Positions 12,009 to 59,381 of a DNA stretch of 64,000 nucleotides are shown in pieces (position 1 is the stretch's first letter; every line of letters begins with the position of its first letter). The notes beneath the pieces are model-generated. The model was not told the origin of the DNA, searched no databases, and worked only from the letters and a program-made list of their open reading frames with translations. Source of the stretch: Eubacteriales bacterium. Its GTDB lineage: Bacteria; Bacillota; Clostridia; Oscillospirales; CAG-272. The position numbers and the translations under genes are program-made. The DNA lies in NCBI GenBank assembly GCA_045533435.1, contig JAZSHT010000104.1, positions 1,590 through 65,589 of the forward strand, written 5' to 3'.

Positions 12009-12020
12009 AATTGCATAGCA

Positions 12021-12130: not shown

Positions 12131-12172
12131 AACAAAAAACAAAGCAAATCGGCATAAAATCAACCGATTTGC
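12131..12172 (-). terminator. terminator of 12181-14235
   Basis: GCAAATCGG / CCGATTTGC stem, followed on the minus strand by TTTGTTTTTT. Confidence 0.7.
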
Positions 12173-12180
12173 TCCAATTT

Positions 12181-14235: not shown

Positions 14236-14300
14236 AATACGCTCCTTGAAAAAAAGTATAGTAAAATTATACATTAAATCAAAGCATAATTCAATATCAA

Positions 14301-14340
14301 AATAAAAAATCGTTATACAGACATAAGCCTGTATAACGAT
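14301..14340 (-). terminator. terminator of the DUF11 gene
   Basis: 12-bp stem ATCGTTATACAG / CTGTATAACGAT, with a T-run on the minus strand. Confidence 0.8.
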
Positions 14341-14346
14341 TTAAAG

Positions 14347-15198
14347 CTATATTGTACCGGTAACTACAACAGTAGATGTGCCAGGAGTAACATTCCAAGC
14401 ACCTGTTATTGGGTCTTGAGTAAATGTTGCAGCAGGTACAGTAATGCTTCCTGCCACGCTCTCAAATAAACCAGTAGCCTCAGTATAGTTGTAATCTGTG
14501 CCCTCGGTCCATAATGTGCCGTTGAATGTTGCGCTTACATTAGAAAGTGTTGGGTCAAATAAATCTGTAATAAATGAATTATCAGTTGACACAACAGGAG
14601 TATTACCTGTATTTTGAATAACAAATGTGTATGTTACAACACCATTATCATTTACAGGCACTGGACTAATTGACTTAGTAATTGTTAAGCTTGGTGCACT
14701 TGCAACAGTAATTGTTTCATCATCTGTAACTGGAGTAAAGCCATTTCCTGATACTGTGGCGGTATTTGTAATCGTAGAGTCAAGGGATAGCGGAGCAAAT
14801 TCATTTGTAGATACCTCATAAACTAAGGTAGCATTACCATTTGCAGGAACGGAAATACCGTTTATTGTTAAATCTCCAACTGCACTAACCGTAGGAGCAG
14901 GCTGCAAGACACCATTGACATAATATCTAATTGTTCCATCAGTATAGGTAAGAGGAACAAGTGTACCAACGGTTGATGAATACGCGCCTAAATTATCGTT
15001 TAAGGTAAGCCCTGTAATAGCAGTAGCACCTGTATTAACAATGCTTACAATATAGGTTACAGTATCATTAGAGCCATATATATTTGAAACAGCAGTTTTG
15101 CTTACAGAAAGCACCTCTAAAACCTCGCCAACTGCAATATTTGAGTTGGTAACAGTATCTCTGTAAGTCAACTGTGCTTGATTAGTAAAGCTTGCCAT
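14347..15198 (-). CDS. DUF11 / conserved-repeat beta-sandwich protein without a signal peptide
   Basis: 283 aa, Thr/Asn/Val-rich, with two repeats of the pattern TYT(F/I)V(I/S)(Q/V)NTGN(T/A). Has an RBS and its own terminator. Confidence 0.7.
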   Translation of the reverse strand: MASFTNQAQLTYRDTVTNSNIAVGEVLEVLSVSKTAVSNIYGSNDTVTYIVSIVNTGATAITGLTLNDNLGAYSSTVGTLVPLTYTDGTIRYYVNGVLQPAPTVSAVGDLTINGISVPANGNATLVYEVSTNEFAPLSLDSTITNTATVSGNGFTPVTDDETITVASAPSLTITKSISPVPVNDNGVVTYTFVIQNTGNTPVVSTDNSFITDLFDPTLSNVSATFNGTLWTEGTDYNYTEATGLFESVAGSITVPAATFTQDPITGAWNVTPGTSTVVVTGTI

Positions 15199-15271
15199 AA
15201 TAATTCCTTTCCGAGAGGAAACCTCTCATCTATATATTATGACAAAAATACAAAAATGACAATGTTAAGCT

Positions 15272-16516
15272 CTAATAATTCATTCCTCTGCAAAGTCGCA
15301 TAAGAGTAACTCTGTTTCGTACTAACGGAGAATATTCAAGCAAAATATCAAGCCTATTTTCCGAAATTCCAATATCATTAAGAGAGGAATATGCACCAAG
15401 CACGCTGTACTTTTCTAAAAGCTCCTCATATGTAGGAATAGATTCAATAATTTTGCATATTTCATCCCACTTATTTAAAATATCACTTGCTTTTATATTA
15501 GAAGCGCAATCGCTTTCATTTTCATGAATTATAGAAAGACTTAATCTGTCCCCAAACATTTTATAAATGTATTCATCATCAGCTTTTTTGTAGTCCTTCC
15601 ATGATGAAATATCGCAGCATTTTATTCTGTGGTATTCCTTGCATGCAAGTAAAGTGCCAACGCCAACCTTTTCTCCATGTAAAGCATCGCTACAAGCATC
15701 TAAGCCCTCTGGCTGCATCTCAATTAGATGCGAAATATGATGCTCAGCACCTGAAGCGCACCTTGAATTACCAAGCAACTGCATTGCAAGCCCCGACATT
15801 AAAAGCCCGTAAATAAGCTTTTCAAATGCAGAGAGGTCTCCATTTTTAATTGCTTCTGTGCTTTCTATAACAGCTTTCGTAGCGTTTAATGTCATATCGT
15901 GTATGGTAGAACAAAAATATTCTCCCGTCAAAGCATGAGCGATTTTCCAATCTGCTAAAGCAATAAATTTTCCTATCATATCGCCAAAACCCGAATTAGT
16001 AAGAAAAGAAGGTGCTTTTGATATTATATCAAGGTCCGCAACAACAATTTTAGGTGCAACAGCAGTAAAGGTCTTTTTAAAACCATCCCAAGTCATAGCT
16101 GCAACGGAAGAACAAAAGCCATCAACACTTGCAGCAGTCGGACATGAAATAAATGGTACATTTTTATTGTAAGCAATGTATCTCGTAATATCATGTACAG
16201 TACCAGACCCCACCGCAATTAAATAATCAAAATTTAAAGGCAGCTGCGCCATAGCAAGAGCCACACCGTGATTATCTGCATGTAACCCATCTGGGCAGAG
16301 TATAATTTCCTTATCTGCATAAGGATGCACTCCATCAGTTGCGCGATATGTATTTTCATCATATATAGCCACACAATAACCACTCAAACCACAGTTTTTA
16401 ATATAAGTGCCTATATTCTTTAAAGCACCCGCCTCAATGAAGCACGCTTCCGTTGTCATTTCATGCTTTTTACCGCATGGGCAATCAATATTATATTTTT
16501 TGCTATCTATAATCAT
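15272..16516 (-). CDS. AraM-like sn-glycerol-1-phosphate dehydrogenase (iron-containing alcohol dehydrogenase superfamily), paralog 1
   Basis: 414 aa. Motifs shared with B. subtilis AraM: AVGSGTVHDITRY, PTAASVDGF, GFGDMIGK, ASGAEHHISHLIEM. Confidence 0.8.
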   Translation of the reverse strand: MIIDSKKYNIDCPCGKKHEMTTEACFIEAGALKNIGTYIKNCGLSGYCVAIYDENTYRATDGVHPYADKEIILCPDGLHADNHGVALAMAQLPLNFDYLIAVGSGTVHDITRYIAYNKNVPFISCPTAASVDGFCSSVAAMTWDGFKKTFTAVAPKIVVADLDIISKAPSFLTNSGFGDMIGKFIALADWKIAHALTGEYFCSTIHDMTLNATKAVIESTEAIKNGDLSAFEKLIYGLLMSGLAMQLLGNSRCASGAEHHISHLIEMQPEGLDACSDALHGEKVGVGTLLACKEYHRIKCCDISSWKDYKKADDEYIYKMFGDRLSLSIIHENESDCASNIKASDILNKWDEICKIIESIPTYEELLEKYSVLGAYSSLNDIGISENRLDILLEYSPLVRNRVTLMRLCRGMNY

Positions 16517-16802
16517 AAAAGCTCCTAGATATGTAAAATTGTAATAAATCTATTTTAGCATAACATCACGATTTTTTCAATCATTATAAGCAAATTTAAA
16601 AGCTATAAAAGCAGTATAATAAAAGCAGCATTATCATTTATAAAGACTATTTTCGCCGACTGTTTAATTATTCCATAACCGCCGACTTGTACGCCATATA
16701 AGCACCAATTTATGAAAGAAACTAAATCAAAATAATAGTTTTGTTTACTTTTAGCGCAGCGCCAAAAAGTAAAAGCCCGATTAATTTTTAGCATAAAGCG
16801 AT

Positions 16803-16902
16803 GACAATGTTGTGGGAAACTCCACAGTAAATTAAATTTATCAAATTAAATTTTCAATTTAAACAAGCATAAATTTTACTAAGAGTTTTCCATCGCATTG
16901 TC
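16803..16902 (+). repeat. 20-bp inverted repeat (GACAATGTTGTGGGAAACTC / GAGTTTTCCATCGCATTGTC) with a 60-nt AT-rich loop
   Basis: Paired by hand: 20 positions, 1 mismatch, 3 G-T pairs. Shares the GTGGGAAA/TTTTCCAT motif with 10311-10376. Confidence 0.7.
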
Positions 16903-19777: not shown

Positions 19778-21049
19778 TTATTCAATTTCATCTTTTACGC
19801 CAAATAAATCATAGTATAACCAAAGAACCGTATATCTGTCCTTTAAGTCCTTAGCATAGTGAACAGCAGTATTGATTTTATCCTTGCCATATAATTTATA
19901 AAACTCACTCAAATCAATTTCTGCAATTTCAAGCATCTTAATAATTTCACAAGGCGCAGGCATCTCTCTTAAAATACCTCTAATTTCATCCTCTTTTTCT
20001 TTATATGTAGAAAGTCTATCCTTGTAATTGCCAATTCTATCCTGCAATTTAATACATTCCTCTGCAATTACACTGTAAACATCCTTCATCTTGCTTTCAT
20101 AATCGCTTCTATCCATCTTATAACTTACAGACGGAAACTCATTATTTAAAATGAACTCTCTTATCTTACTTGTAATGACAGTAGAGTAAACCACATCAAT
20201 TCCATGTGGAAAATATTCCTCACCATTAATAATTCCTGTAATCTCAAAAAAGTGTGATAAATGATGCTCACTACCTGAAGCAGGTCTTGATGTTGTAGCA
20301 AAGCTCATCATAATTCCCACAATCATAAGCGCCTCAGTTAAAATCTTAACGCTATTTTCATCTCTTTCTAAAAGTCCTGATGCTACATTAAGTGTCTTTA
20401 AAATCATATCATATGTAGTGTCATAAATATACTTACAAAAATATTCGCCGTTTACACATGTTGCAAGCTTCCAGTCATTAAGTGCAGAGTATTTACCGAT
20501 AATATCCCCATATCCCGCCTTAATCATATCCATTGGCGCATTTTTTAAAACCTCAGTATCTGCTATAATTGCATATGGCAAGGAAGCAGGCACAGTTTCC
20601 TTCATTCCTTTAAGTATCATTGCCGCACCACTTGAAGCATAACCGTCCATTGATGGAGCAGTTGCCACTATCATATAAGGTATGTGAGCAAAATGAGCAA
20701 CATATTTACATAAATCCTGCATAACGCCTGAGCCAATACCGATAATTAAATCAACACCCTCAAGCTCATTTCTTACACACTCGATAGCATTTTCATCAGG
20801 TATTACAACACTCTTACCGCTAAAAATAACCTTTTTATATTCCTTACCGCAAAGAGCAGACTCAACCTGCTTTCCACTTGCGTTAAAGGTATTTTCGTCA
20901 GCCACAATTAAAATTTTATTGTAGCCCACACATAAATCCGTTAAATGCTTGCAAGCATCCTTTTCAATATATATATATTTAATAGTACAATCGTGCATTT
21001 TTCCACATGCATCACATTTTACACCACTTAAAATTGAGTTAATATCCAT
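19778..21049 (-). CDS. AraM-like sn-glycerol-1-phosphate dehydrogenase family protein, paralog 2
   Basis: The ORF track starts at 21073, but the ATG at 21049 has RBS GGGGAGA (MDINSILSG...). Motifs: GIGSGVMQDLCKY, ATAPSMDGY, GYGDIIGK, ASGSEHHLSHFFE. Confidence 0.8.
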   Translation of the reverse strand: MDINSILSGVKCDACGKMHDCTIKYIYIEKDACKHLTDLCVGYNKILIVADENTFNASGKQVESALCGKEYKKVIFSGKSVVIPDENAIECVRNELEGVDLIIGIGSGVMQDLCKYVAHFAHIPYMIVATAPSMDGYASSGAAMILKGMKETVPASLPYAIIADTEVLKNAPMDMIKAGYGDIIGKYSALNDWKLATCVNGEYFCKYIYDTTYDMILKTLNVASGLLERDENSVKILTEALMIVGIMMSFATTSRPASGSEHHLSHFFEITGIINGEEYFPHGIDVVYSTVITSKIREFILNNEFPSVSYKMDRSDYESKMKDVYSVIAEECIKLQDRIGNYKDRLSTYKEKEDEIRGILREMPAPCEIIKMLEIAEIDLSEFYKLYGKDKINTAVHYAKDLKDRYTVLWLYYDLFGVKDEIE

Positions 21050-33772: not shown

Positions 33773-35245
33773 ATGTTTAGAAATGTAACGCCAGAAAGCG
33801 TTGGTGTTGACTCTAAAAATCTTTTTAAGCTTATAAAAAGGCTAAACGCCTTGCATATGCACAGCCTTTTAGTAGCAAGGGGCAACGATATTTTTTGCGA
33901 ATGCTATTGGAAGCCATTTGATAAGGACTTTAACCACAGAATGTATTCTGTTACAAAGAGCTTTGTGTCGGTTGCAATCGGTCTATGTGTAGAGGATGGC
34001 TTGCTTGAATTAGATGACCCAATTATAGAATATTTTCCTGAAAAAATCAAAAAAGAGCCAGGGGAGTATCTAAAAAAGCAAACAATTCGCGATATGCTTA
34101 CCATGACAACGGTAGGATTTTGTCAAGATTGGTTTAAAGAAAAGCCTTATGACAGAACGGAATTTTATTTAAATGACCAAAACAAAAAGCATCCAAGCGG
34201 AACACTTTGGGAATATGATAGCGCAGGGTCGCAGGTGCTTTCATCATTGGTTGAAAAGGTAACAGGCAAGAGCATTTTTGATTTCTTAAATGAAAGAATT
34301 TTCACAAAATTAGATGCATTTAAAAATGCCACCATATTAAAGACACCTAACGGCGATAGCTGGGGCGATTCGGCTCTTATTTGCACACCGAGGGATTTAC
34401 TCGCATTTGCTCGCTTCGTGTTAAATTACGGCGTATATAACGGCGAAAGGCTGATGAATGAGGACTATCTAAGAGAAGCAACCGCAAGACATAAGGATAA
34501 CTCTCCATCTGCCCACAGGGATTCCTTGCACCGTGGCTACGGCTATCAATTTTGGCGCGCGCCCAATGATAGCTTTGCATTTGTGGGAATGGGAAATCAG
34601 CTTGCTATTTGTGTGCCAGGCAAGGACTTAATTTTCGTTTGCACCGCAGACAATCAAGGCAGTGAATTTTCAACAGAGCTTATTGTAAACGGCTTTTATG
34701 AGTACATTGTTGATGAAATAAGCGACACTCCCCTGCCTGAAAATGAAAATAATTCAAAAATGCTTAATTCTCTCATAAATTCCCTTGAGCTTTACTGTGA
34801 ATACGGCTATGTTGACTCCCCATACCGTGAAATTATAAATGGCGTAACATATAAGTGCGAGGAAAATCAAATGGGAATTAAAAGCTTCCGCTTTGATTTT
34901 GCAAACGATAAAGAGGGAACACTTACATACGAAAATGAAAACGGTACAATGGTATTGCCATTTAAGATAAACTCAAACTATTTTGGTAAGTTCCCTGAGG
35001 AAGGCTATTCCAACGAATATGGCTCTTTACGCACACAGGATGGCTTTAAATATAACTGTGCAACAAGTGGTGCTTGGACACAAACGGACAAAATAACAGT
35101 ATTTTCACAAATTATTGATAAATACTTCGGCAATGTAACATTTTCATTCTATTTTAAGGATGATTTAGCATTTTTAAGATGCGAAAAAACTGCCGAGGAC
35201 TTCCTTTGGCAATACAAAGGCGACGCCGTTGGCGTCAGGGTATAG
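33773..35245 (+). CDS. serine hydrolase, beta-lactamase/transpeptidase-like family
   Basis: 490 aa with SxxK motif (SVTKSF). The last codons and the TAG stop are encoded by a TAGGGTA-class heptamer array. Confidence 0.82.
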   Translation: MFRNVTPESVGVDSKNLFKLIKRLNALHMHSLLVARGNDIFCECYWKPFDKDFNHRMYSVTKSFVSVAIGLCVEDGLLELDDPIIEYFPEKIKKEPGEYLKKQTIRDMLTMTTVGFCQDWFKEKPYDRTEFYLNDQNKKHPSGTLWEYDSAGSQVLSSLVEKVTGKSIFDFLNERIFTKLDAFKNATILKTPNGDSWGDSALICTPRDLLAFARFVLNYGVYNGERLMNEDYLREATARHKDNSPSAHRDSLHRGYGYQFWRAPNDSFAFVGMGNQLAICVPGKDLIFVCTADNQGSEFSTELIVNGFYEYIVDEISDTPLPENENNSKMLNSLINSLELYCEYGYVDSPYREIINGVTYKCEENQMGIKSFRFDFANDKEGTLTYENENGTMVLPFKINSNYFGKFPEEGYSNEYGSLRTQDGFKYNCATSGAWTQTDKITVFSQIIDKYFGNVTFSFYFKDDLAFLRCEKTAEDFLWQYKGDAVGVRV

Positions 35246-35263
35246 GATATAGGGTATAGGGGT
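35236..35263 (+). repeat. heptamer array, class TAGGGTA (CAGGGTA TAGGATA TAGGGTA TAGGGGT)
   Basis: Read directly. Supplies the last codons and the TAG stop (35243-35245) of the upstream CDS. Confidence 0.85.
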
Positions 35264-36558: not shown

Positions 36559-36597
36559 TAGCCGCCAGCCGTTAGCAGCCAGCGGTCAGCCGTTAAC
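36559..36597 (+). repeat. heptamer array, class TAGCCGT (TAGCCGC CAGCCGT TAGCAGC CAGCGGT CAGCCGT TAAC)
   Basis: Read directly. Starts 2 nt after the TAA stop of the CopZ-like gene. Confidence 0.85.
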
Positions 36598-39636: not shown

Positions 39637-39671
39637 CAGCGGTCAGCCGTTAGCCGTTAGCGGTTAGCGAG
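39637..39671 (+). repeat. heptamer array, class TAGCCGT (CAGCGGT CAGCCGT TAGCCGT TAGCGGT TAGCGAG)
   Basis: Read directly. Preceded by the TAG stop (39621-39623) and the box TTCGCTTCGCTCACAG. Confidence 0.88.
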
Positions 39672-40353: not shown

Positions 40354-40388
40354 CTGACCACCGACCACTAAACACTGACCACTAAAAA
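40354..40388 (-). repeat. heptamer array, reverse orientation of class TGGTCAG (CTGACCA CCGACCA CTAAACA CTGACCA CTAAAAA)
   Basis: Read directly. Overlaps the start of a rho-independent terminator. Confidence 0.8.
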
Positions 40389-46110: not shown

Positions 46111-47124
46111 ATGTTAATTAACGATAACCATTACTTAACCGTTATAGAAAATATAAAAGCGCAGATAGAAAATTCCCGACATAAGGCAGCTCTCAAGGTT
46201 AATCAAGAGTTAATTTTGCTCTATTACAACATTGGAAAAATCATTAATGAAAATAAATCTTGGGGAAATAAATTTATAGACACACTTGCTAAGGATATAA
46301 AAATAATGTATCCAAGCTCCACGGGATATTCGGTGCGAAATTTGAAATATATGTCAAAATTAGCGGAATCCTACACGGATATAGAATTTGTGCAACAGGC
46401 TGTTGCACAAATTCCTTGGGGACATAATACAGTAATTTTAGATAAAATAGAATCATCCGAATCAAGAAATTGGTACATCCAAAAAACTATTGAAAACGGT
46501 TGGTCCCGTTCTATTCTATCTCATCAAATAGATACCAAGTTATATGAAAGGCAAGCTATCGCTAACAAAGTTTCAAATTTTGAAAAGCAGCTTCCTTCTC
46601 CACAAAGCGAGCTTGCCTCTCAAGCCATGAAGGACCCGTATATATTTGATTTTATTACCTTCAAAGAAGATATGCTTGAAAGAGATTTGGAAAATGAGCT
46701 AATTAAAAAAATCACATCTCTTCTATTAGAATTGGGAACAGGATTTGCTTTCGTTGGAAATCAATATCATATGAATGTCGGCGGCGAAGATTTCTACATC
46801 GACCTTTTATTCTATAACATAAATTTAAGATGCTATGTTGTGATAGAATTAAAAACTGATGACTTTAAGCCAGAATATGCAGGAAAATTAAATTTTTATC
46901 TTTCTGCAGTTGATGACATCTTAAAAAAGGATGGAGACAATCCAACCATAGGACTTTTACTGTGTCAAAGCAAAAATAATATAATTGCCGAATACTCACT
47001 AAGAGATATGTCAAAGCCTATGGGAGTAAGCGAATATAAAATCACTTGTAGCTTGCCTAAAGACTTAGAAAAGCAATTACCTTCCATCGAAGATATTCAA
47101 AAACGCATTTCTAATAAATTTTAA
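46111..47124 (+). CDS. DUF1016 / YhcG-type PD-(D/E)XK nuclease family protein
   Basis: 337 aa with a characteristic DUF1016 N-terminus (...NQELILLYYNIGKII...GYSVRNLKYM...IPWGHN) and a C-terminal D...ELK nuclease core (DLLFYNINLRCYVVIELK). Confidence 0.85.
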   Translation: MLINDNHYLTVIENIKAQIENSRHKAALKVNQELILLYYNIGKIINENKSWGNKFIDTLAKDIKIMYPSSTGYSVRNLKYMSKLAESYTDIEFVQQAVAQIPWGHNTVILDKIESSESRNWYIQKTIENGWSRSILSHQIDTKLYERQAIANKVSNFEKQLPSPQSELASQAMKDPYIFDFITFKEDMLERDLENELIKKITSLLLELGTGFAFVGNQYHMNVGGEDFYIDLLFYNINLRCYVVIELKTDDFKPEYAGKLNFYLSAVDDILKKDGDNPTIGLLLCQSKNNIIAEYSLRDMSKPMGVSEYKITCSLPKDLEKQLPSIEDIQKRISNKF

Positions 47125-47697: not shown

Positions 47698-47735
47698 CTG
47701 CTGACGGCTGACAGCTAACGGCTGGTGGCTGTTCA
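47698..47735 (-). repeat. heptamer array, reverse orientation of class TAGCCGT (CTG CTGACGG CTGACAG CTAACGG CTGGTGG CTGTTCA)
   Basis: Read directly. Lies in the 5' UTR, ending 26 nt before the citrate synthase ATG. Confidence 0.85.
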
Positions 47736-47761: not shown

Positions 47762-49135
47762 ATGGCAAGAGTAAAGAAAGAATTAACACAATTAACTCCA
47801 CAGCTTATGGGTTATGTAGAAAAATGCTCAATCAATACAACTATTGAAGCAGAGCTTTTTGACAAATATAATGTAAAAAGAGGACTTAGAGAAAAGGACG
47901 GTAAGGGTGTAGTTGTAGGTCTTACTGAAATTTCCGAGGTACAGGGCTTTAAGTATGTTGATGGCGTAAGAACTCCTTGCGAGGGCGAGCTTTTCTACCG
48001 TGGTATCAATATTTATGACCTTGTTGATGGATTTTTAAATGATGGCAGACACGGCTACGAGGAAACTATTTACCTTCTTCTTTTCGGTGTTCTTCCAAAT
48101 AAAGAGGAGCTTGATGATTTTATAAAGCTACTTTCAAAATATCGTTCACTTCCAAAGAATTTCGTTCGTGATATTCTTATGAAGGCATCAGGCAAGGACA
48201 TGATGAACTCACTTGCACGAAGCGTGCTTACTCTTTATGCTTATGATGACAAGGCAGATGATACATCAATTCCTAATGTGCTTCGCCAAAGCTTACAGTT
48301 AATTTCAGAGTTTCCACTTTTAGCGGTTTATGCATATCATGCATATGAATTCTATGAAAAGAAAAATAGCTTAGTTATTCGCCCACCAAAGGCGGGACTT
48401 TCAACTGCGGAAAACTTCCTTTATATGCTAAGAAAGGATGGAAAATATACTCCACTTGAAGCAAGAATTCTTGATGTTGCGTTAGTTTTACACGCAGAGC
48501 ACGGTGGCGGTAACAACTCCACCTTTACAACTCATGTTGTTTCATCATCCGGTACAGACACATACTCAACAATTGCCGCATCCCTTGGCTCACTTAAGGG
48601 TCCAAGACACGGTGGCGCTAACATTAAGGTTGTTGAAATGATTGAAGACATTAAGAAAAATGTTAAGGATTGGACAGATGAAAACCAAATTTCCGATTAC
48701 CTAAACAAAATCTTAAATAAAGAAGCATTTGATGGCAAGGGACTTATTTACGGTATGGGACATGCCATTTACTCTAAATCCGACCCAAGAGCTTGTATTT
48801 TAAGAAGATTTGTTGAAAAGCTTTCAAAGGAAAAGGGCAAGGATAAGGACTATAAGCTTTGTCAGTTAATTGAAAGACTTGCACCCAAAATCATCGCAGA
48901 GCATAAAGCAATTTTCAAGGGCGTAAGCGCAAATATTGACTTTTATAGTGGATTTATCTATGATATGCTTGATATTCCTCACGAGCTATATACACCACTC
49001 TTTGCAATTTCTCGTATTGCAGGCTGGAGCGCACACCGCCTTGAGGAAATCTTAATGAACGGTAAAATCATCCGTCCTGCTTATCAGGAAATCATCCCAA
49101 GAGGCACTTATGTTCCTATGGAAGAAAGAAAATAG
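47762..49135 (+). CDS. citrate synthase
   Basis: 457 aa with motifs HAEHGGGNNSTF, GPRHGGAN, GMGHAIY. The TAG stop is followed directly by a TGGTCAG array. Confidence 0.93.
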   Translation: MARVKKELTQLTPQLMGYVEKCSINTTIEAELFDKYNVKRGLREKDGKGVVVGLTEISEVQGFKYVDGVRTPCEGELFYRGINIYDLVDGFLNDGRHGYEETIYLLLFGVLPNKEELDDFIKLLSKYRSLPKNFVRDILMKASGKDMMNSLARSVLTLYAYDDKADDTSIPNVLRQSLQLISEFPLLAVYAYHAYEFYEKKNSLVIRPPKAGLSTAENFLYMLRKDGKYTPLEARILDVALVLHAEHGGGNNSTFTTHVVSSSGTDTYSTIAASLGSLKGPRHGGANIKVVEMIEDIKKNVKDWTDENQISDYLNKILNKEAFDGKGLIYGMGHAIYSKSDPRACILRRFVEKLSKEKGKDKDYKLCQLIERLAPKIIAEHKAIFKGVSANIDFYSGFIYDMLDIPHELYTPLFAISRIAGWSAHRLEEILMNGKIIRPAYQEIIPRGTYVPMEERK

Positions 49136-49163
49136 TGGTCAGTGGCTAGTGATCAGTAGTTAG
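49133..49163 (+). repeat. heptamer array (TAG TGGTCAG TGGCTAG TGATCAG TAG TTAG)
   Basis: The first TAG is the citrate synthase stop. Followed by TTAGCTTTTGCACAACATTACA, which is homologous to the sequence next to the array at 52941-52974. Confidence 0.92.
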
Positions 49164-49191
49164 CTTTTGCACAACATTACACATACTAAAA

Positions 49192-49221
49192 AACGCATAC
49201 ATCTTTTCGGTGTATGCGTTT
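49192..49221 (+). repeat. 30-bp direct repeat copy 1 (terminator hairpin AACGCATACATCTTTTCGGTGTATGCGTTT)
   Basis: Identical 30-mer at 52070-52099. The two copies bracket the R-M cassette. Confidence 0.95.
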
Positions 49222-49344
49222 ATTTTTAGTAAAATGAAAATAATTATTAGAATAGCTCACGATTTTTTAAAATTGCATTTTGGATCTTGATTTTGTTCGA
49301 TAAATAGAATATAATAGACTTATAAAATATAAGGAGACAATTTT

Positions 49345-50415
49345 ATGCTTCAATATATGTCTTGCCGAGATGCTGCCGAAAGATGGAATATATCACAACG
49401 CAGAGTTTCTGTTTTATGCGCTGAAAATCGCATACCCAATGTTGCTATGCTCGGCAATATGTGGATAATTCCCATAAATGCCGAAAAGCCAACGGATGCA
49501 CGAAAAAATAACGGTGCAAAGCCAACTAATGAAAAAGCTCATCCTTTTATAAAATGGGCAGGTGGTAAAACTCAGCTTTTAGATGTACTTAAAAGTAATT
49601 TACCAAGTGGTATTGGTACTACTATTAGAAAATATGCAGAGCCTTTTGTTGGTGGCGGTGCATTCCTTTTCTCTATACTCGAGGAATACAACTTTGAGGA
49701 AATTTACATTAGCGATAACAATAAAGAGCTTATGAATGTTTATGTCGCCATTAGGGATAACTGTAACCAGCTTTTAAATGCTCTCAACACCTTGCAAAAC
49801 GAATATAATGGACTTAGTGCCGAATTGCAAGAGAAATTTTATTATGAAAAGCGCGAGGAATTTAATACAGTTGAATTGACCGATAAAACAAGTGTTCAAA
49901 AGGCTTCATTGTTTATTTTCTTAAATAAATCTTGTTTTAATGGTTTATTTAGGGTTAACAAAAAGGGCAAATATAATGTTCCTTTTGGAAAACACAAGTC
50001 TGTTTCAATTTGCGATAGCGATAATTTAACTAAAATTTCTGCTATGCTACAAAATGTTATAATAAAGGCTTGCGATTATCAAGAGGTTATGAGCTTTGCT
50101 GATAGCTCAACTCTTGTATATTTTGACCCACCATATAGACCCTTGAATGTAACATCAGGCTTTACCTCATATACCGAGGATGATTTTTCTGATAAAAATC
50201 AAATAGATTTAGCAAATTGCTTCAAGGCTCTTTCAAAAAAAGGCGTTAAAGTAATGCTTAGCAACTCAGACCCAAAAAACACAAACGAAAATGACAATTT
50301 CTTTGACGATTTGTATGCAGATTTTAACATTTTGCGTGTTGAAGCCTCTCGTATGATAAACAGTAAAGGCTCATCAAGAGGAAAAATCAAAGAGCTTTTA
50401 ATTAAGAATTATTAA
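49345..50415 (+). CDS. Dam-type N6-adenine DNA methyltransferase (GATC-type) with N-terminal HTH domain
   Basis: 356 aa. The first ~50 aa are HTH-like (CRDAAERWNISQRRVSVLCAENRIPN), followed by the Dam pattern KWAGGK...EPFVGGGA...YFDPPY. Confidence 0.9.
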   Translation: MLQYMSCRDAAERWNISQRRVSVLCAENRIPNVAMLGNMWIIPINAEKPTDARKNNGAKPTNEKAHPFIKWAGGKTQLLDVLKSNLPSGIGTTIRKYAEPFVGGGAFLFSILEEYNFEEIYISDNNKELMNVYVAIRDNCNQLLNALNTLQNEYNGLSAELQEKFYYEKREEFNTVELTDKTSVQKASLFIFLNKSCFNGLFRVNKKGKYNVPFGKHKSVSICDSDNLTKISAMLQNVIIKACDYQEVMSFADSSTLVYFDPPYRPLNVTSGFTSYTEDDFSDKNQIDLANCFKALSKKGVKVMLSNSDPKNTNENDNFFDDLYADFNILRVEASRMINSKGSSRGKIKELLIKNY

Positions 50416-50424
50416 GGAGTAGAT

Positions 50425-51303
50425 ATGAAAAGAAATTTTAACGAATGGCTTGCTAATTTCAGAGAAAGCATAGCTGACTACAAGTATTATATTGATTTTG
50501 ACAAAGTACATAGAAATGTTGATAGCATAAAGATTGAGTTGAATATATTAAATACACTTGTAGGCTCTAAAAACATTGAAGCTGACTTTATAAACTTAGT
50601 AAAGAAATATCCTGAAACATTAAAGGTTATTCCTATTCTACTTGCAAAGAGAGAAAGTGAAATATATTGCCAAGATCAAAATTTAGCACGAACATTTGAA
50701 TTTTCCAAAAATATTCCCATAGATGCAGATGAGAAATTTTTCAAAGAGTATTGCTATTTTATGAGAGAAACAGGGCTTTTTGATCTATTACAAAATCGCA
50801 TTATAAGCAACTTGGTTGATTATGTAACAGGCGTTGAAACAGGCTTGGATTCAAACGGCAGAAAAAACCGTGGCGGTCATTTAATGGAAAATTTAGTTGA
50901 AAGCTATATTCAACAGGCTGGATTTATAAAAAATGAAACTTATTTTAAAGAAATGAACCTTTCAGATATAGAACATCTTTGGGGAATTGACTTATCTGCA
51001 ATTTCAAACACAGGTAAAACGGAAAAACGATTTGATTTTGTAGTGAAAACCAACAACAAAATTTATGGAATAGAAGCAAACTTTTATTCAAGTGGCGGCT
51101 CTAAGCTAAATGAAACAGCAAGAAGCTATAAAAATATAGCTATTGAGTCAAAAGAAATAGATGGGTTTGAATTTGTATGGTTTACCGACGGAAACGGTTG
51201 GAAATCTGCAAGACACAATTTAGAAGAAACCTTTGATGTAATGGAACACATTTATTCTATTGCCGACTTAGAAAACGGCATAGCAAACGAATTATTTAAC
51301 TGA
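50425..51303 (+). CDS. DpnII/MboI-family type II restriction endonuclease (GATC)
   Basis: 292 aa, collinear with my recollection of DpnII: ...LNILNTLVGSKNIE..., NLVDYVTGVETGLDSNGRKNRGG, KRFDFVVK, NFYSSGGSKLNETARSYK. Confidence 0.88.
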   Translation: MKRNFNEWLANFRESIADYKYYIDFDKVHRNVDSIKIELNILNTLVGSKNIEADFINLVKKYPETLKVIPILLAKRESEIYCQDQNLARTFEFSKNIPIDADEKFFKEYCYFMRETGLFDLLQNRIISNLVDYVTGVETGLDSNGRKNRGGHLMENLVESYIQQAGFIKNETYFKEMNLSDIEHLWGIDLSAISNTGKTEKRFDFVVKTNNKIYGIEANFYSSGGSKLNETARSYKNIAIESKEIDGFEFVWFTDGNGWKSARHNLEETFDVMEHIYSIADLENGIANELFN

Positions 51304-51304
51304 T

Positions 51305-52042
51305 ATGGCAAAGAAAATACCTTTACAACCAGAAAATTTTGAGCTTGAAACAAATACTGTTTGGAGCTTTCCAAATAGGGGAAAATGGGCAACTCACGAT
51401 GCCAAATACCGCGGAAATTGGTCGCCTTATATCCCAAGAAATATAATTTTAAGATATTCAAACGAGGGTGATACAGTTCTTGATCAATTTGTTGGCGGTG
51501 GTACAACTATGGTTGAAGCCAAGCTGACAGGCAGAAATGCAATAGGAGTTGATATTAACCCAAATGCAGTTGAATTGTCTTTGAAAAAATGTAATTTTGA
51601 ATACGAATCAAGTTCACAAATTAAAATAATGCAAGGTGATGCAAGATATCTTAATTTAGAGAACGAAAGCATTGATCTTATTTGCACTCATCCACCCTAT
51701 GCTGATATTATCAAGTATAGCGAAGATATTAAAGGCGATTTGTCGCACCTTAAAATAAAAGATTTTTTAACAGAGATCTACAAGGTAGCGCAGGAAAGCT
51801 ATCGAGTTTTGAAAAAAGGCAAGTTTTGTGCTATTTTAATGGGAGATACCCGCAAAAACGGCATGGTTCAACCTCTCGCTTTTGAAACAATGCGTCTTTT
51901 TGAACTTGTTGGATTTAAGACAAAAGAAATTATAATAAAAGAACAACATAATTGTAAAGCAACGGGTTTTTGGAAAACTAATAGCATAAAACACAATTTT
52001 TTGTTACTTGCCCACGAATATTTATTTGTATTCAAAAAATAA
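51305..52042 (+). CDS. second SAM-dependent DNA methyltransferase of the R-M cassette
   Basis: 245 aa with motif I FVGGGTT and motif IV THPPY. Its start is 1 nt after the endonuclease stop codon. Confidence 0.82.
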   Translation: MAKKIPLQPENFELETNTVWSFPNRGKWATHDAKYRGNWSPYIPRNIILRYSNEGDTVLDQFVGGGTTMVEAKLTGRNAIGVDINPNAVELSLKKCNFEYESSSQIKIMQGDARYLNLENESIDLICTHPPYADIIKYSEDIKGDLSHLKIKDFLTEIYKVAQESYRVLKKGKFCAILMGDTRKNGMVQPLAFETMRLFELVGFKTKEIIIKEQHNCKATGFWKTNSIKHNFLLLAHEYLFVFKK

Positions 52043-52069
52043 AATCTTATTTTAAATATTTTAAAAAAT

Positions 52070-52099
52070 AACGCATACATCTTTTCGGTGTATGCGTTT
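52070..52099 (+). repeat. 30-bp direct repeat copy 2
   Basis: Identical to 49192-49221. Also serves as a bidirectional terminator for 51305-52042 (+) and 52101-52433 (-). Confidence 0.95.
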
Positions 52100-52100
52100 T

Positions 52101-52433
52101 TTAGTATTCAATAAAGGTTAGCTTATCTATTTTTTCGCACATATTATAAAATTTTACGGCTTCTGTAAATTGGTCAATGGTTGTTCTGTACGCTTCTATT
52201 TTCTCTTTTTCATAATTTTGCACCATTTCAATTATATCATTTTCCGCACACCTAATAGCATCGTCCACGGTCATAGAGGAGTATTTTTTTATATGCCCTA
52301 TACGGAGAAGTCTGTATGCACAATGATAATATTTATCCTCTAATAGCTCCTTGTGGCAATAAAAATATGCAAGCTCTCTTACTCTTATATAATCAGCCGC
52401 TTGTTCAATCATTCCATCTATTCCGTATAACAT
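52101..52433 (-). CDS. hypothetical protein
   Basis: 110-aa ORF with RBS AGAGGT, divergent from an XRE regulator. No motifs recognised. Confidence 0.55.
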   Translation of the reverse strand: MLYGIDGMIEQAADYIRVRELAYFYCHKELLEDKYYHCAYRLLRIGHIKKYSSMTVDDAIRCAENDIIEMVQNYEKEKIEAYRTTIDQFTEAVKFYNMCEKIDKLTFIEY

Positions 52434-52881: not shown

Positions 52882-52885
52882 AATA

Positions 52886-52911
52886 ACGCATACGGATTTC
52901 CGTATGCGTTT
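52886..52911. terminator. terminator related in sequence to the 30-bp direct repeats
   Basis: AACGCATACGG-ATTT-CCGTATGCGTT. Same ACGCATAC/GTATGCGT stem ends as 49192 and 52070. Confidence 0.8.
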
Positions 52912-52940
52912 TATTATTTGTAAGCTTGTGCAAAATCTAA

Positions 52941-52974
52941 CTGCTGACCGCTGACCACTGATCACTGACCACTA
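52941..52974 (-). repeat. heptamer array (reverse complement: TAG TGGTCAG TGATCAG TGGTCAG CGGTCAG CAG)
   Basis: This TAG is the stop of the minus-strand gene 52972-53847. Inverted counterpart of the array at 49133-49163. Confidence 0.92.
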
Positions 52975-53847
52975 AATATTTATTGTTTGATTTGCGTAAA
53001 TATCCACACATGTGTCGCTATTTTCAAGGATTAAGGACACAGGGGTGTCAAAAATTTCAGTTGGCAAGTCGGTTTTGAGTGTAACCTGTGTGCCGTTTTC
53101 GGTGTTTTCAACTACTAACTCGGAGTTATCACGAAGGTAAATATATTTTACCATATCGTTATATGAGCAGAGCCAAATGTTATTTTTGTTTGCTTGCTCA
53201 GCAAGGTACATACATTCAGGCAAGAATGTTTCGTACTTTTGGGCGTGGTGGGTATCCTGCTCCTTTTTAGAAAGCCAATGGTTCATTTGAACTGTCCAAC
53301 CGCCCTCGCTTATTGTCTTATCAATATTATCAATATATGGCTGTAAATCGTAAACAAAGCGAGTTGTAAATGTGCCAACATCATATAAATTCATGTTATA
53401 TGTGTCGTTAATTCTGTCATTTCCGTTTCGGTTTGAATAGTAATATTCCTTTAAAATGTTCCAACCCTCCTGTGTGCTACCGCCACCGGGAGTTACATAT
53501 GCAATTACAGGTGTGCCGTAAATTTCCTCAAGTTTTTCCTTAGTTTCCTTAGCATCCTTATGTAATTTTTCGGGGTCGGTTTCGCCATTATAGCATAAGC
53601 AATGGTCAATACTGTGTCCGCAAATATCAAAATAGCCCTCGTTAATAAGGTCCTTCCACATTTTAATTATCCATTCGTGCAAGAAGCCAACAGTTTGAGC
53701 AGAGGTAATTTTGATTTTTTGTCCTGTCTTTTCGTAAACCTCTTTTAAATTTTCGTATGCATCAAGAGTTGACTCGCGATAGCATCCATCATCAAATACA
53801 AAGCTGTATGCACTTTTTGCGTTGTTATAGTAAGTTGCAATTTTCAT
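52972..53847 (-). CDS. polysaccharide deacetylase-like protein
   Basis: 291 aa with FVFDDG and GHSIDH motifs. The TAG stop is followed, in gene orientation, by a TGGTCAG array. The 5' UTR carries the CCCTAT array plus CGACTGAAAGGAG. Confidence 0.7.
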   Translation of the reverse strand: MKIATYYNNAKSAYSFVFDDGCYRESTLDAYENLKEVYEKTGQKIKITSAQTVGFLHEWIIKMWKDLINEGYFDICGHSIDHCLCYNGETDPEKLHKDAKETKEKLEEIYGTPVIAYVTPGGGSTQEGWNILKEYYYSNRNGNDRINDTYNMNLYDVGTFTTRFVYDLQPYIDNIDKTISEGGWTVQMNHWLSKKEQDTHHAQKYETFLPECMYLAEQANKNNIWLCSYNDMVKYIYLRDNSELVVENTENGTQVTLKTDLPTEIFDTPVSLILENSDTCVDIYANQTINI

Positions 53848-55491: not shown

Positions 55492-57318
55492 ATGATTAGA
55501 GACGACTTAAGAAATGTAGCAATTATTGCTCACGTTGACCACGGCAAAACAACTCTTGTTGACGGTATGCTTCAGCAAGGTGGCGCATATCACGAAAACC
55601 AAGCAACTACTGACAGAGTAATGGACTCTAACGCTCTTGAAAAGGAAAGAGGAATTACTATCCTTGCAAAAAATACTGCTATTCACTATGGCGACAAAAA
55701 AATCAATGTAATTGACACCCCAGGCCACGCTGACTTTGGCGGCGAGGTTGAAAGAATTCTTAAAATGGTTAACGGTGTTATCCTTCTTGTTGATGCAGCA
55801 GAGGGACCAATGCCACAAACAAGATTCGTTCTTCGCAAGGCTATGGAATTAAATCACAGAATTATCGTTGTTGTTAATAAGATTGACCGTCCTGATGCTC
55901 GTGTAACTGAGGTTATTGATGAGGTTTTAGAGCTTCTTATTGACTTAAATGCAACTGATGAGCAGCTTGACTCTCCAATGCTTTTCTGCTCAGGTAGAGC
56001 AGGCACAGCGTCATTCTCTCCTGATGTAGAGGGCGAAAACTTAATTCCACTTCTTGATACAATCGTAAATTACATTCCAGCTCCAGAGGGAGAAGAGGAT
56101 GAAAGCCTTCAATTACTCGTTTCATCTATTGACTATAACGAGTATGTTGGTAAAATCGGTGTAGGTAGAATTGAAAGAGGCTCACTTAAGGTAAACCAAG
56201 AGGTTACAGTATGTAACTTCCACTCAGATGAAGCTCCAAGAAGAGCAAAAATCGTTTCAATTTATCAATTTGATGGTCTTTCCCGTACACAGGTACAAAG
56301 TGCAACAGTTGGCGATATCGTATGCTTCTCAGGTGTTGAAGAGCTTTCAATCGGCGATACACTTTGCTCTGCTGGTAATGTTGAGCCACTTGAATTTGTA
56401 AAGGTTTCAGAGCCTACTCTTGAAATGACATTTGCAGTTAACGATAGCCCATTTGCAGGCAAAGAAGGTAAATTCGTAACATCCCGCCAAATTAGAGACC
56501 GCCTTTACAAGGAAACACTTAAGGATGTATCTCTCCGTGTAAGCGATGGCGACACTACCGACTCATTTAGAGTTGCAGGTAGAGGCGAAATGCACTTATC
56601 AATCCTTATTGAAACAATGCGCCGTGAGGGCTTTGAGCTTTGCTGCTCAACTCCAAGAGTGCTTTATAAAACAATTGATGGCATTTTACATGAGCCAATG
56701 GAAAGAGTTTCTATTGATGTACCGGCAGAGAGCGCAGGCGCAGTTATTCAAAAGCTTAGCGCAAGAAAGGGCGAGCTTTTAGAAATGGACCCAACAGGCT
56801 CAAGAACTAAGCTTGAATATATTATTCCATCAAGATGCTTACTTGGTTACAGAAACGAGTTTATGACAGATACAAAGGGCGAGGGCATTTTAAATACACT
56901 CTTTGATGGCTATCAACCATTCAAGGGAGAGGTTGTAACAAGATTTACAGGCTCACTTATCGCATCCGAAACAGGCGAAGCAACATCATACGGTCTATTT
57001 AAGACACAAGACAGAGGCGCTATGTTTATCGGCGTTCAAACTCCTGTTTATGAGGGAATGATTGTTGGCGAATGTCCAAAGATGGAGGATATCGTTCTTA
57101 ATGTTTGCCAAAAGAAGCACTTAACTGCTATTCGTTCAAAGGGCGCAGATGAGGCTTTAATTCTCGTTCCACCAAAGCAATTATCCCTTGAGCAAGCTAT
57201 TGAGTATATTGCGGATGATGAGCTTATTGAGGTAACACCTAAGTCAATTAGATTAAGAAAGAAAATTCTTGATACTGCATTAAGACTTAAGGCGCAAGCG
57301 AAATTAAAAAAGCAGTGA
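55492..57318 (+). CDS. typA: translational GTPase TypA/BipA
   Basis: The ATG at 55492 has RBS AAAGGAG ([24 protein letters not shown]). The TGA stop lies inside the first TGATCAG unit of an array. Confidence 0.95.
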
Positions 57319-57350
57319 TCAGTGGTCAGTGGTCAGTGTTCAGCAGCTAG
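57313..57350 (+). repeat. heptamer array (CAG TGATCAG TGGTCAG TGGTCAG TGTTCAG CAG CTAG)
   Basis: The typA TGA stop (57316-57318) is part of the first unit. Confidence 0.9.
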
Positions 57351-57506: not shown

Positions 57507-58754
57507 ATGTTTTCAGAAAAGATATTAAATATAGCATCTGAGGCGGAAAGGGAGCTTGCTCCGATTTTTGCTAAGATTGATGAAATTTCATTTAAAAATA
57601 CACAAAGAGTGCTTGAAAGCTTTAAGGAATTTAAGGTTGCCGAGAGTATGTTTGCAGGCACAACTGGTTATGGCTACGATGATATTGGCAGAGACACACT
57701 TGATAAAATTTATGCCGATGTTTTCGGAGCAGAAAGTGCATTTGTAAGACACTCAATAGCCAACGGCACAAGCGCACTTACAATCGGATTGTTTGGACTT
57801 TTAAGACCAAATGATGTGCTTTTATCAGTTACAAATCAACCATATGATACTCTTTGCGAGGTAATCGGCATTAACGGTGCAAACGGAGATGGCTCACTTG
57901 CGGATTTTGGTGTAAAATACGATCAGGTTGACTTTAAAAACGAGGAAATTGACTTTGAGGGAATTGAGAAAAAGCTCAATGAATATGGAGATAGCGTTAA
58001 GGTTGTTTTCATTCAACGCTCAAAGGGATATTTAAATAGACCGACACTTACAATAGACCAAATTGGCGAAATTTGCGATTTTGTTCACAAAAGAAGCAAA
58101 TCGTATGTGGTTGTTGACAACTGCTATGGCGAATTTTGCGAGGATAGAGAGCCTTGCCATGTGGGAGCAGATATGATAATCGGCTCACTTATTAAAAATC
58201 CAGGTGGCGGAATTGCCGAAAGCGGTGGATATATTGCAGGCACAAAAAGAGCAGTTGAGTTAGCTTCCTACCGTTTAACCTCTGCCGGCACAGGATGCGA
58301 GGTAGGTGCATCTTTAGGTCAAAACAGAAATATGTTCAAGGGATTTTTCTTAGCACCTCACATTGTGGCTCAGGCTATTAAAACTGCACATTTTGCCGCA
58401 TATGTGTTTGAAAAATTAGGCTTTGATGTATCTCCAAGGTATAACGAAATGCGCTCGGATATTATCCAAACAATTAAGTTTGGATACGCTGATGGTCTTA
58501 TTAAATTCTGCCAAGGAATTCAAAGCGCATCCCCTGTTGACTCTTATGTAACTCCTGTGCCATGGGCAATGCCAGGCTATCAGGATGAGGTAATTATGGC
58601 AGCAGGCGCATTTACTCAAGGCTCATCAATAGAAATTTCAGCAGACGGTCCTATTCGCATACCATATACCGCATTTTTACAAGGCGGTCTAACCTTTGAA
58701 AGCGGAAAAATCGCAATATTAACAGCAGCTTCGCTGCTAGGGGATAGGATATAG
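57507..58754 (+). CDS. YnbB / aluminium-resistance family PLP-dependent (Met gamma-lyase-like) protein
   Basis: 415 aa with the typical FAGTTGYGYDDIGRDTLD N-terminal region. The last 4-5 codons and the TAG stop are encoded by the TAGGGGA/TAGGATA array. Confidence 0.85.
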   Translation: MFSEKILNIASEAERELAPIFAKIDEISFKNTQRVLESFKEFKVAESMFAGTTGYGYDDIGRDTLDKIYADVFGAESAFVRHSIANGTSALTIGLFGLLRPNDVLLSVTNQPYDTLCEVIGINGANGDGSLADFGVKYDQVDFKNEEIDFEGIEKKLNEYGDSVKVVFIQRSKGYLNRPTLTIDQIGEICDFVHKRSKSYVVVDNCYGEFCEDREPCHVGADMIIGSLIKNPGGGIAESGGYIAGTKRAVELASYRLTSAGTGCEVGASLGQNRNMFKGFFLAPHIVAQAIKTAHFAAYVFEKLGFDVSPRYNEMRSDIIQTIKFGYADGLIKFCQGIQSASPVDSYVTPVPWAMPGYQDEVIMAAGAFTQGSSIEISADGPIRIPYTAFLQGGLTFESGKIAILTAASLLGDRI

Positions 58755-58772
58755 GATATAGGGGATAGGGAT
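58738..58772 (+). repeat. heptamer array (TAGGGGA TAGGATA TAGGATA TAGGGGA TAGGGAT)
   Basis: Spans the end of the ynbB-like CDS (stop TAG at 58752-58754) and the entire 18-nt spacer up to the rlmH ATG at 58773. Confidence 0.92.
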
Positions 58773-59255
58773 ATGTTGAATATCAAAATTATAGCCACAG
58801 GCGATGTAAAGGAAGCATATTGGCAAAACGCCATTAAGGAATATCAAAAAAGACTTGGCGCTTGGTGCAAAATTGAGGAAATTATTTTAAAGGAAGAAAG
58901 ACTTCCCGATAATCCCACACAATCACAAATTGACAAAGCCCTTGAATGTGAGGAAAAGCGAATTTTAGAAAAGCTTTCCTCAAAATCATATGTGATTGCA
59001 ATGTGCGTTGAGGGTAAGCAGTTATCAAGCGAGGAGCTTGCCTCAAAGATAACCGATATAACAAATTTAGGCAAAAGCGAGATAGTTTTTATCATCGGCT
59101 CATCCTTTGGTCTATCCAAAAAGGTCAAGGAAGTGTCTGATTTTAAGCTCTCAATCTCAAAATTAACCTTCCCACATCAATTATTAAGAGTTATTTTACA
59201 CGAAACGATTTATAGGTCATTAAGTATTATTTATGGTACGAAGTACCATAAATAA
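58773..59255 (+). CDS. rlmH: 23S rRNA (pseudouridine1915-N3)-methyltransferase
   Basis: 160 aa in the SPOUT family (IGSSFGLS...LSISKLTFPHQL). The start codon directly follows the heptamer array. Confidence 0.92.
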   Translation: MLNIKIIATGDVKEAYWQNAIKEYQKRLGAWCKIEEIILKEERLPDNPTQSQIDKALECEEKRILEKLSSKSYVIAMCVEGKQLSSEELASKITDITNLGKSEIVFIIGSSFGLSKKVKEVSDFKLSISKLTFPHQLLRVILHETIYRSLSIIYGTKYHK

Positions 59256-59287
59256 GCGGTCAGCCGTTAGCAGTTAGCTGTTAGCAG
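59256..59287 (+). repeat. heptamer array, class TAGCCGT (GCGGT CAGCCGT TAGCAGT TAGCTGT TAGCAG)
   Basis: Starts immediately after the rlmH TAA. Confidence 0.88.
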
Positions 59288-59353: not shown

Positions 59354-59381
59354 CTGTAAGCTGGCGGCTGGCGGCTATAAC
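59354..59381 (-). repeat. heptamer array, reverse-type (CTGTAAG CTGGCGG CTGGCGG CTATAAC)
   Basis: Partially complementary to 59256-59287, separated by a 66-nt AT-rich loop. Confidence 0.8.

Follow-up and report, generated by a model that had tools for sequence, protein, structure and literature searches.

A predicted DpnII/MboI-type restriction-modification cassette between identical copies of a palindromic terminator, with empty alleles in related gut Clostridia

Background

Insertion of restriction-modification (R-M) genes with a long duplication of the target was reportedly described by Nobusato et al. in 2000. The case analysed here is a three-gene R-M cassette with an identical terminator hairpin on either side, found in a 64 kb stretch from an uncultured gut Clostridia genome; this stretch is called the window, and coordinates are window positions unless a related locus is named. 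Inserts of the kind considered were defined by Furuta, Abe and Kobayashi 2010 (PMC2853133) as segments of less than 20 kb, which carry both R and M genes, contain no mobility genes and are flanked by a repeat of more than 30 bp that occurs only once in a related genome lacking the insert. The Haemophilus influenzae cases feature 46-bp repeats, and the words terminator and palindrome have zero occurrences in the paper.

Other points of reference are the pneumococcal DpnI/DpnII(/DpnIII) cassettes (Johnston et al. 2013, PMC3812788, PMC3573125; Eutsey et al. 2015, PMC4471560), among which dpnMAB has both methylases ahead of the endonuclease (PMC3812788), the minimal mobile elements of Neisseria (Saunders and Snyder, as cited in PMC3082526 and PMC1538595), and the attC arrays of integrons.

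The locus matches R-M insertion with long target duplication, combined with allelic exchange in the style of the Dpn cassettes and minimal mobile elements. A probability of roughly three in four is given to a history in which the cassette inserted beside a target hairpin, duplicating it, then spread via its flanks, and is removable via the repeats. Modestly new are the use of a palindromic terminator as the duplicated target and its reuse between unrelated cassettes at one hotspot.

Results

Identical hairpins at both ends of the R-M genes

The identical 30-mer AACGCATACATCTTTTCGGTGTATGCGTTT occurs exactly twice in the window, on both sides of the R-M genes, and a third, related hairpin is found further downstream:

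49192-49221, + strand: direct repeat copy 1, intrinsic terminator of citrate synthase (extended 49188-49231; fold -22 kcal/mol, z -8.55)
52070-52099, + strand: direct repeat copy 2, terminator of the R-M operon and, on the minus strand, of a 110-amino-acid (110-aa) open reading frame, or ORF (extended 52066-52106)
52885-52910, + strand: third hairpin AACGCATACGGATTTCCGTATGCGTT, bidirectional terminator between the helix-turn-helix (HTH) and deacetylase genes (from sequence, terminator call and fold)

Scanning of the 64 kb with up to 3 mismatches detected no further copy of the 30-mer, and none of 100 dinucleotide shuffles contained a match, the chance expectation being zero. The initial annotation of the window had listed the two 30-bp repeats with their TTTAGTA tails, and both are exact matches; the similarity reaches farther, to 46 nt at 87% identity without gaps or, when one 3-nt indel is admitted, to ~41-44 nt with the structure AAAA[A/T]-30mer-[ATT]TTTAGTA, over the extended intervals given above. 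The TTAGTA common to both tails corresponds, as read from the sequence, to the last codon and stop codon of the minus-strand 110-aa ORF, and copy 1 thus bears a duplicated scrap of the gene adjoining copy 2. The 2.85 kb between the repeats, precisely 2,848 bp, had been annotated as a promoter plus three R-M genes, and indeed contain only a promoter and M, R and M genes.

Copy 2 folds at -17.2 kcal/mol on the plus strand and at -13.6 kcal/mol on the minus strand. The third hairpin had been recognised as a diverged relative, but at 52886-52911, one position off; it shares with the repeat copies an identical 9-bp outer stem, AACGCATAC/GTATGCGTT, and has a different inner stem. All three hairpins obtain intrinsic-terminator-like scores, with folding energies between -13.6 and -22 kcal/mol and z values between -4.9 and -8.6 against shuffled controls.

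Empty alleles and other layouts in related genomes

When species-representative genomes were scanned for citrate synthase, five close loci (L002-L006) were obtained. They come from uncultured Eubacteriales/Clostridia (faecal, goat gut and deer gut), and the locus is anchored in them by citrate synthase orthologues of 90-99% identity. About 20 more assemblies, reached through homologues of the HTH gene, share the layouts, which were established by BLAST and hairpin mapping:

L003: citrate synthase, one hairpin (of the third kind), deacetylase gene; the simplest allele
L002, L006: hairpin, 110-aa/HTH, hairpin
Window: hairpin, R-M, hairpin, 110-aa/HTH, hairpin
L005: hairpin, 95-aa/HTH, hairpin, Fic, hairpin, 444-bp insert, hairpin

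An exact empty allele is present in L167, where the window's left flank, ending in AGCTTTTGCACAACATTACACATACTAAAA, is followed by the identical 30-mer and by the right flank of copy 2, TTTAATATTCAATAAAGG. The same single-hairpin arrangement, in which the sequence left of copy 1 meets that right of copy 2, recurs in L002 (99% identical in citrate synthase), L006, L168 and ten more assemblies (L155-L164), and the presence/absence polymorphism with a single-hairpin deletion or empty allele, predicted by the initial annotation for related genomes, is therefore real. R-M genes occupy the locus in the window and in L165 only, i.e. in 2 of more than 25 related loci, and are missing from relatives up to 99% identical in citrate synthase. 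In L165 they are found at the same locus with the same leader, and the junction of citrate synthase, hairpin and R-M genes is thereby seen in an independent assembly.

A second, independent case of a hairpin-bounded indel is provided by sibling species. L145, L146 and L005 contain a 444-bp insert between identical 29-nt hairpins, while L147 carries, without the insert, one hairpin with the outer flanks of both L145-type hairpins. Up to three different cassettes are separated by the same hairpin at this locus. The Fic-domain gene, which has its own promoter, and the 444-bp insert are located in L005 at 12645-13691 and 13747-14161, equivalent to 8484-9530 and 9586-10000 of L145; within the insert are a tiny ORF, a terminator of its own and a site resembling a promoter. 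When the sibling-species locus was compared with Rfam, the single match was sub-threshold and lay outside the insert.

No member of the hairpin family was found outside this intergenic locus, either in the window or in the ~30 related loci (16-21 kb each), so that over this range the repeat is not the common terminator of many unrelated loci which the initial annotation had considered. Among the 42 hairpins of the window with stems of at least 8 bp, no other duplicated terminator was detected, and only this family is repeated; further apparent hairpin repeats were discarded as coincidental A/T-run stems. A loose hairpin pattern produced 110 matches in viral contigs, all single-copy with unrelated interiors, which do not represent this element. 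L004 was dropped as a comparison locus, since putative prophage genes follow citrate synthase and the hairpin is absent.

The loop of the third hairpin varies: the window, L003, L167 and L168 have GGATTTCC, and L002 and L165 have GGAAATCC. Over its whole length, the hairpin with GGAAATCC is exactly the reverse complement of the one with GGATTTCC, corresponding either to a flipped palindrome or to two substitutions. The variants map to 52885-52910 in the window, 12252-12277 in L002 and about 407-432 in L165; in the last, the GGAAATCC variant stands to the left of the R-M genes, a position taken by the other hairpin type in the window.

The mobile unit and the source of the hairpin

The segment between the two hairpins is composed of the following features:

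49232-49278, + strand: leader, context-specific; common to L165, not to cassette copies in other genomes
49279-52042, + strand: mobile R-M cassette core, from promoter to M2 stop codon
49287-49315, + strand: cassette promoter, sigma-70-like TTGATT-17-TATAAT (promoter call), kept in all cassette copies
49345-50415, + strand: M1, Dam/D12-class N6-adenine DNA methyltransferase, DpnM-like (PF02086, 1.1e-63)
50425-51303, + strand: R, DpnII-family type II restriction endonuclease (PF04556, 2.7e-107, profile positions 1-277 of 278)
51305-52042, + strand: M2, N6_N4-class DNA methyltransferase in the DpnA/MboC position (PF01555, 2.8e-27)

Starting from close endonuclease homologues (85-92% identity), the three-gene cassette was retrieved from three other chromosomal contexts, at 87-89% nucleotide identity:

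L133 (JGI contig Ga0224413_10009394) and L134: after pyrI
L139-L141: after a serine recombinase gene
L166: after a DHDPS gene

Homology to these contexts begins at 49273-49279 (TTTGGATCTTG, promoter) and ends at 52042, the M2 stop codon. The core has sharp ends, without terminal repeats and without a terminator of its own and, judging from these boundaries, the mobile unit is the promoter plus the three genes. This hairpin is absent from the cassette copies L133-L144 and L166, and in the three other contexts the cassette has unrelated local terminators on its sides and no flanking direct repeat. Since the core occurs elsewhere without hairpin or repeat, the hairpin belongs to the target site and not to the cassette.

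The R-M island has a guanine-cytosine (GC) content of 31-35%, compared with 39-42% for the flanking core genes. Taken together, the target-derived hairpin, the duplicated ORF end, the low GC content and the rarity of the R-M genes favour insertion with target duplication over an ancestral array. Pfam detected no transposase domain, and a transposon or insertion sequence was rejected, on account of this absence, the lack of terminal repeats on the core and a duplication of 30-44 bp. No close relative of the cassette was found on plasmids or phages, the best match (68.6% identity) being a Fusobacterium vincentii record of 2.1 Mb, which is chromosome-sized. Exact-protein look-ups with the citrate synthase, deacetylase, R and M2 of the window returned one 2.3-kb contig, ending just past the citrate synthase stop codon, and nothing else.

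M1 also matches TIGR00571 dam (5.7e-85), and its best solved structure is pneumococcal DpnM (2dpm, 3.4e-56). Homologues of R number in the thousands, the nearest at 99% identity. The system is of the DpnII/MboI type, with predicted GATC specificity and gene order M-R-M, an order resembling that of MboI. GATC is strongly depleted in the window (23 observed, 146 expected, ratio 0.16), but other 4-bp palindromes are likewise depleted, with observed/expected ratios, from a second-order Markov model over the 64 kb, of 0.17 for ACGT, 0.19 for GGCC, 0.26 for CTAG, 0.38 for CCGG, 0.39 for CATG and 0.40 for TCGA. This depletion suggests a lineage long exposed to many restriction systems.

A GATC site is located just upstream of the predicted -35 box, overlapping it by one base, in the promoter region TTTTGGATCTTGATTTT (49279-49300) of all cassette copies. 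The N-terminus of M1 (first ~45 codons, 49345-49480) gives a weak HTH_17 match (0.0085, under the curated cut-off). The two features hint at a possible control of the R-M genes by methylation or autorepression.

Spread of the occupied allele

In citrate synthase, the window, L165 and L002 differ from each other to a similar extent (~96% identity), yet the window and L165 share 98.6-99.6% identity in their R-M genes. Between these two loci, 14 mismatches fall in 48781-48986 and none in 48987-49134, the last 148 bp of citrate synthase; 18 are counted over the ~2.3 kb of leader and R-M genes. Mismatches are significantly denser at the 3' end of citrate synthase (15 in 399 nt) than in the R-M genes (15 in ~2,165 nt; Fisher p ~1e-5). 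The mismatch map indicates that homologous recombination transferred the occupied allele from one background to another, a crossover falling within citrate synthase. A crossover at the hairpin, which would favour site-specific recombination, was rejected, since the near-identical tract starts 148 bp inside citrate synthase. Conserved flanking genes with differing content between them are observed in the window, L002, L003, L005/L145, L147 and L006.

Flanking genes and the palindromic site

The intergenic site and the genes around it are described by the following features:

47762-49135, + strand: citrate synthase, conserved left flanking gene (ORF; PF00285)
49134-49191, + strand: left arm of a 58-nt inverted repeat, made up of the 7-bp array GTGGTCA/GTGATCA and the spacer AGCTTTTGCACAACATTACACATACTAAAA (partner 52909-52966)
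52101-52433, - strand: 110-aa ORF, forming a two-gene module with the HTH gene; last codon and stop codon inside the duplicated segment
52573-52881, + strand: XRE-family HTH regulator, divergent from the 110-aa ORF (PF12844, 3.3e-8)
52909-52973, - strand: right arm of the 58-nt inverted repeat and 7-bp array TGACCAC (inverted-repeat search)
52972-53847, - strand: polysaccharide-deacetylase-like gene, conserved right flanking gene (PF01522, 9.8e-7)

The arm preceding hairpin 1 and the one following hairpin 3 are mutually inverted over 58 nt, with 81% complementarity. With both arms joined to the central hairpin, the rebuilt 150-nt unit folds at -45.4 kcal/mol (z -11.6), and L003, the natural minimal allele, at -25 kcal/mol (z -6.1). 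Leaving aside the inserted genes, the space between the convergent genes forms one long, imperfect palindrome with the hairpin at its centre.

The 110-aa ORF has no significant match in Pfam, NCBIfam or PHROG, and is also found beside the HTH gene in L002, L005, L006 and L155-L168. A perfect TTGACA-17-TATAAT is present on the minus strand at 52500-52472, and would serve this ORF. The deacetylase-like gene is syntenic in L002, L003, L005 and L006.

Arrays of 7-bp units and other local variation

Short arrays of several 7-bp units (AGTGGTC, AGGGAAT, TTAGCCG, AGCGGTT and others) are located directly after stop codons, and inverted arrays immediately precede the next gene's ribosome-binding region (GACTGAAAGGAG); intergenic regions are thus bracketed by inverted pairs. 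The arrays of the window, with paired ones separated by a slash, are found at:

5604-5636, 8839-8881, 35237-35261, 36560-36592, 39638-39669, 40359-40386
41951-41981/42073-42103, 45189-45219/45330-45354, 47700-47724, 49135-49165/52944-52973
53876-53909/54173-54203, 57313-57343, 58744-58774, 59262-59287, 59360-59376

At orthologous positions the units are different, namely GCAGTCA/GCAGCCA in L002 and GGATGTA/GGGTGTA in L005 and L006. To our knowledge, no described element matches these arrays.

A YhcG/DUF1016 PDDEXK-nuclease gene (46111-47124) is present in the window, L002 and L163 and absent from L003-L006, which have a short spacer of 7-bp repeats instead. Unlike the R-M indel, this one is not flanked by direct repeats. 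In L005, from a goat caecum, short dispersed or tandem repeats with units AATATATCGAA and GCTAAATT lie near the locus, together with three copies of another hairpin family, AACTTCAC...GTGAAGTT; these repeats are located at 11400-11700, 16873-16896, 20326-20350 and 21012-21035. The L004 ORFs at 11506-16754, downstream of a citrate synthase of 92% identity, look, when read by eye, like major capsid, portal and terminase genes, and represent a different rearrangement at the same citrate synthase boundary.

Discussion

A probable history of insertion, exchange and loss

In the preferred history, the ancestral state would be a single bidirectional terminator hairpin, forming the centre of a palindrome between the convergent citrate synthase gene and 110-aa ORF. 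A 2.8-kb cassette of the DpnII/MboI family, provided with its own promoter and devoid of a terminator or mobility gene, would have entered beside this hairpin, and the insertion would have duplicated a target of ~41-44 bp, including the hairpin, the A/T runs, and the stop codon and last codon of the 110-aa ORF. In the resulting allele, copy 1 would terminate citrate synthase and screen the R-M promoter from read-through, and copy 2 would supply the terminator missing from the cassette, while also ending the converging 110-aa ORF. The occupied allele would spread among lineages by homologous recombination in the flanking genes, and recombination between the direct repeats could remove the cassette precisely, leaving one hairpin. 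Insertion with target duplication had been one of the origins envisaged by the initial annotation, and the target-derived hairpin and the empty alleles support it.

The duplication may have arisen by either of two routes. According to the first, breaks on either side of the palindrome centre would be followed by fill-in, a cut cruciform or hairpin keeping the full palindrome at both ends; a foreign fragment joined between the two palindrome ends would then give the observed structure. The second would be a Campbell-type integration of a circle carrying one copy of the hairpin, through ~40 bp of homology.

Several points weigh against this history. Insertion with target duplication and deletion between old repeats leave the same pair of alleles, and the polarity rests on parsimony, composition and the foreign cassette copies, with no direct trace of the event. 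The junction on the right, from the R-M 3' end through the hairpin into the 110-aa ORF, is observed in the window only, L165 ending inside M2. In addition, the left hairpin of L165 has a different inner-stem variant and the 7-bp repeats are absent there, so that the site has been rearranged since, and the original junction may be obscured. The exact repeat, at 30 bp, stands at the published threshold of more than 30 bp, exceeding it only with one indel and one mismatch. Finally, the uniqueness of the hairpin covers the window and the related loci, not the whole genomes of the lineage.

A broader view, which is speculative and in our judgement unlikely, would make a reusable cassette-capture site of the palindromic terminator lying between the genes for citrate synthase and the deacetylase. 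The palindrome, 110-150 bp long, would be repeatedly broken, for example by cruciform or hairpin processing, and its repair with foreign DNA would regenerate both hairpins.

Alternative explanations

The polarity may be the reverse of the one proposed, a multi-cassette array being ancestral and the single-hairpin alleles deletions, with no insertion in the lineage. Direct repeats of 30-46 bp allow precise deletion, the product of which looks like an unoccupied site, and arrays of two to four hairpins are widespread in the clade. The R-M genes, however, are confined to 2 of the more than 25 loci, both sharing a 99%-identical, recently exchanged allele, and the GC content of the cassette is below that of the core genes. 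Moreover the core exists elsewhere free of the hairpin, so that it must once have entered the locus, gaining a hairpin on each side. On these grounds reversed polarity is considered improbable.

Slightly less probable still is that the hairpin is a dedicated recombination site of the attC/dif type, served by a recombinase encoded elsewhere, in an integron-like array without a linked integrase. Such a site would account for the four unrelated cassettes (R-M, Fic, 110-aa/HTH and the 444-bp insert) split by a hairpin confined to one locus, and for the two independent, exact pairs of one- and two-hairpin alleles; 11-bp inverted arms with a short spacer, as read by eye, also resemble tyrosine-recombinase core sites. 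Yet no integrase or recombinase gene was found within ~8 kb on each side of the locus in annotated relatives (L145, L155-L161), where the genes are metabolic or housekeeping, and Pfam detected no recombinase among the nine window proteins nearest to the locus. The loop or spacer varies freely, the copies ranging from 26 to 30 nt via T-run changes, which a core of fixed spacing would not tolerate, and no RYYYAAC/GTTRRRY core is visible by eye. The R-M cassette is found in other genomes without the hairpin, the transfer between window and L165 crossed inside citrate synthase and not at the hairpin, and the cassettes have their own promoters, unlike those of integrons.

That the two copies are chance, convergent or gene-converted terminators, or an assembly artefact caused by the repeat, is hardly credible: the outer stem AACGCATAC...GTATGCGTT, with unrelated interiors, does recur in the 110 viral contigs, and by itself is not unique, but none of these matches has the same interior, the 30/30 identity and shared flanks have a chance expectation of zero, the empty alleles contradict chance, the junction recurs in L165 and analogous double-hairpin structures in other independent assemblies, and a repeat of 30-46 bp is shorter than the k-mers (119-141) named in several related contigs.

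Comparison with described systems

Insertion beside a duplicated hairpin, as preferred here, brings the locus closest to the class of Furuta et al., with an insert of 2,848 bp carrying R and M genes, no mobility gene, and a repeat which is single-copy at the empty sites of L167, L002, L006 and L168. The published 46-bp repeats are near in length to the present one, to be read as exact over 30 bp, as 41-44 bp with a 3-nt indel and a mismatch, or as 46 nt at 87% without gaps. The difference lies in the target, here a palindromic terminator within a longer palindrome, which also bounds cassettes other than R-M.

The initial annotation had likened the polymorphism to the pneumococcal DpnI/DpnII cassettes. 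The likeness holds for the gene family, where a DpnII-family endonuclease is accompanied by a DpnM-like Dam methyltransferase and by another methylase, here a putative counterpart of DpnA, and for a fixed chromosomal locus, polymorphic between strains and exchanged via flanking homology. It does not extend to gene order, M1-R-M2 here and dpnMAB in pneumococcus, nor to the kind of polymorphism, which is presence or absence with direct repeats here and a choice between alternative R-M systems in pneumococcus.

Minimal mobile elements have in common with this locus an intergenic site with conserved flanks, varying cassettes, no mobility genes and recombination through the flanks; they are not defined by a hairpin repeated between cassettes. 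As in integron attC arrays, unrelated cassettes are each followed by an imperfect palindrome, and a cassette is gained or lost together with one such element. The hairpin, however, is a Rho-independent terminator of 26-30 nt, which is not carried by the R-M cassette, and the cassettes have promoters. An integron array was rejected, given that no integrase is nearby, the hairpin stays behind, the loop is variable and the cassettes are promoter-bearing.

Significance

Both occupied and empty alleles are represented in independent assemblies from other samples, and illustrate how R-M genes without mobility genes enter and leave a chromosome. With a palindromic terminator as the target, the incoming operon gains upstream insulation and a terminator at no cost. 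Palindrome breakage, if it is the cause, would offer a testable mechanism for a class which has lacked one since 2000. The capture site, if it exists, would be an integron-like array (R-M, Fic, XRE module, small insert) with own promoters and no dedicated recombinase, where every cassette would be insulated by the same terminator and precisely excisable. Strains should differ in GATC methylation by a 2.8-kb indel, as predicted from the genes it carries, with a bearing on phage susceptibility and on methylation-based long-read strain binning.

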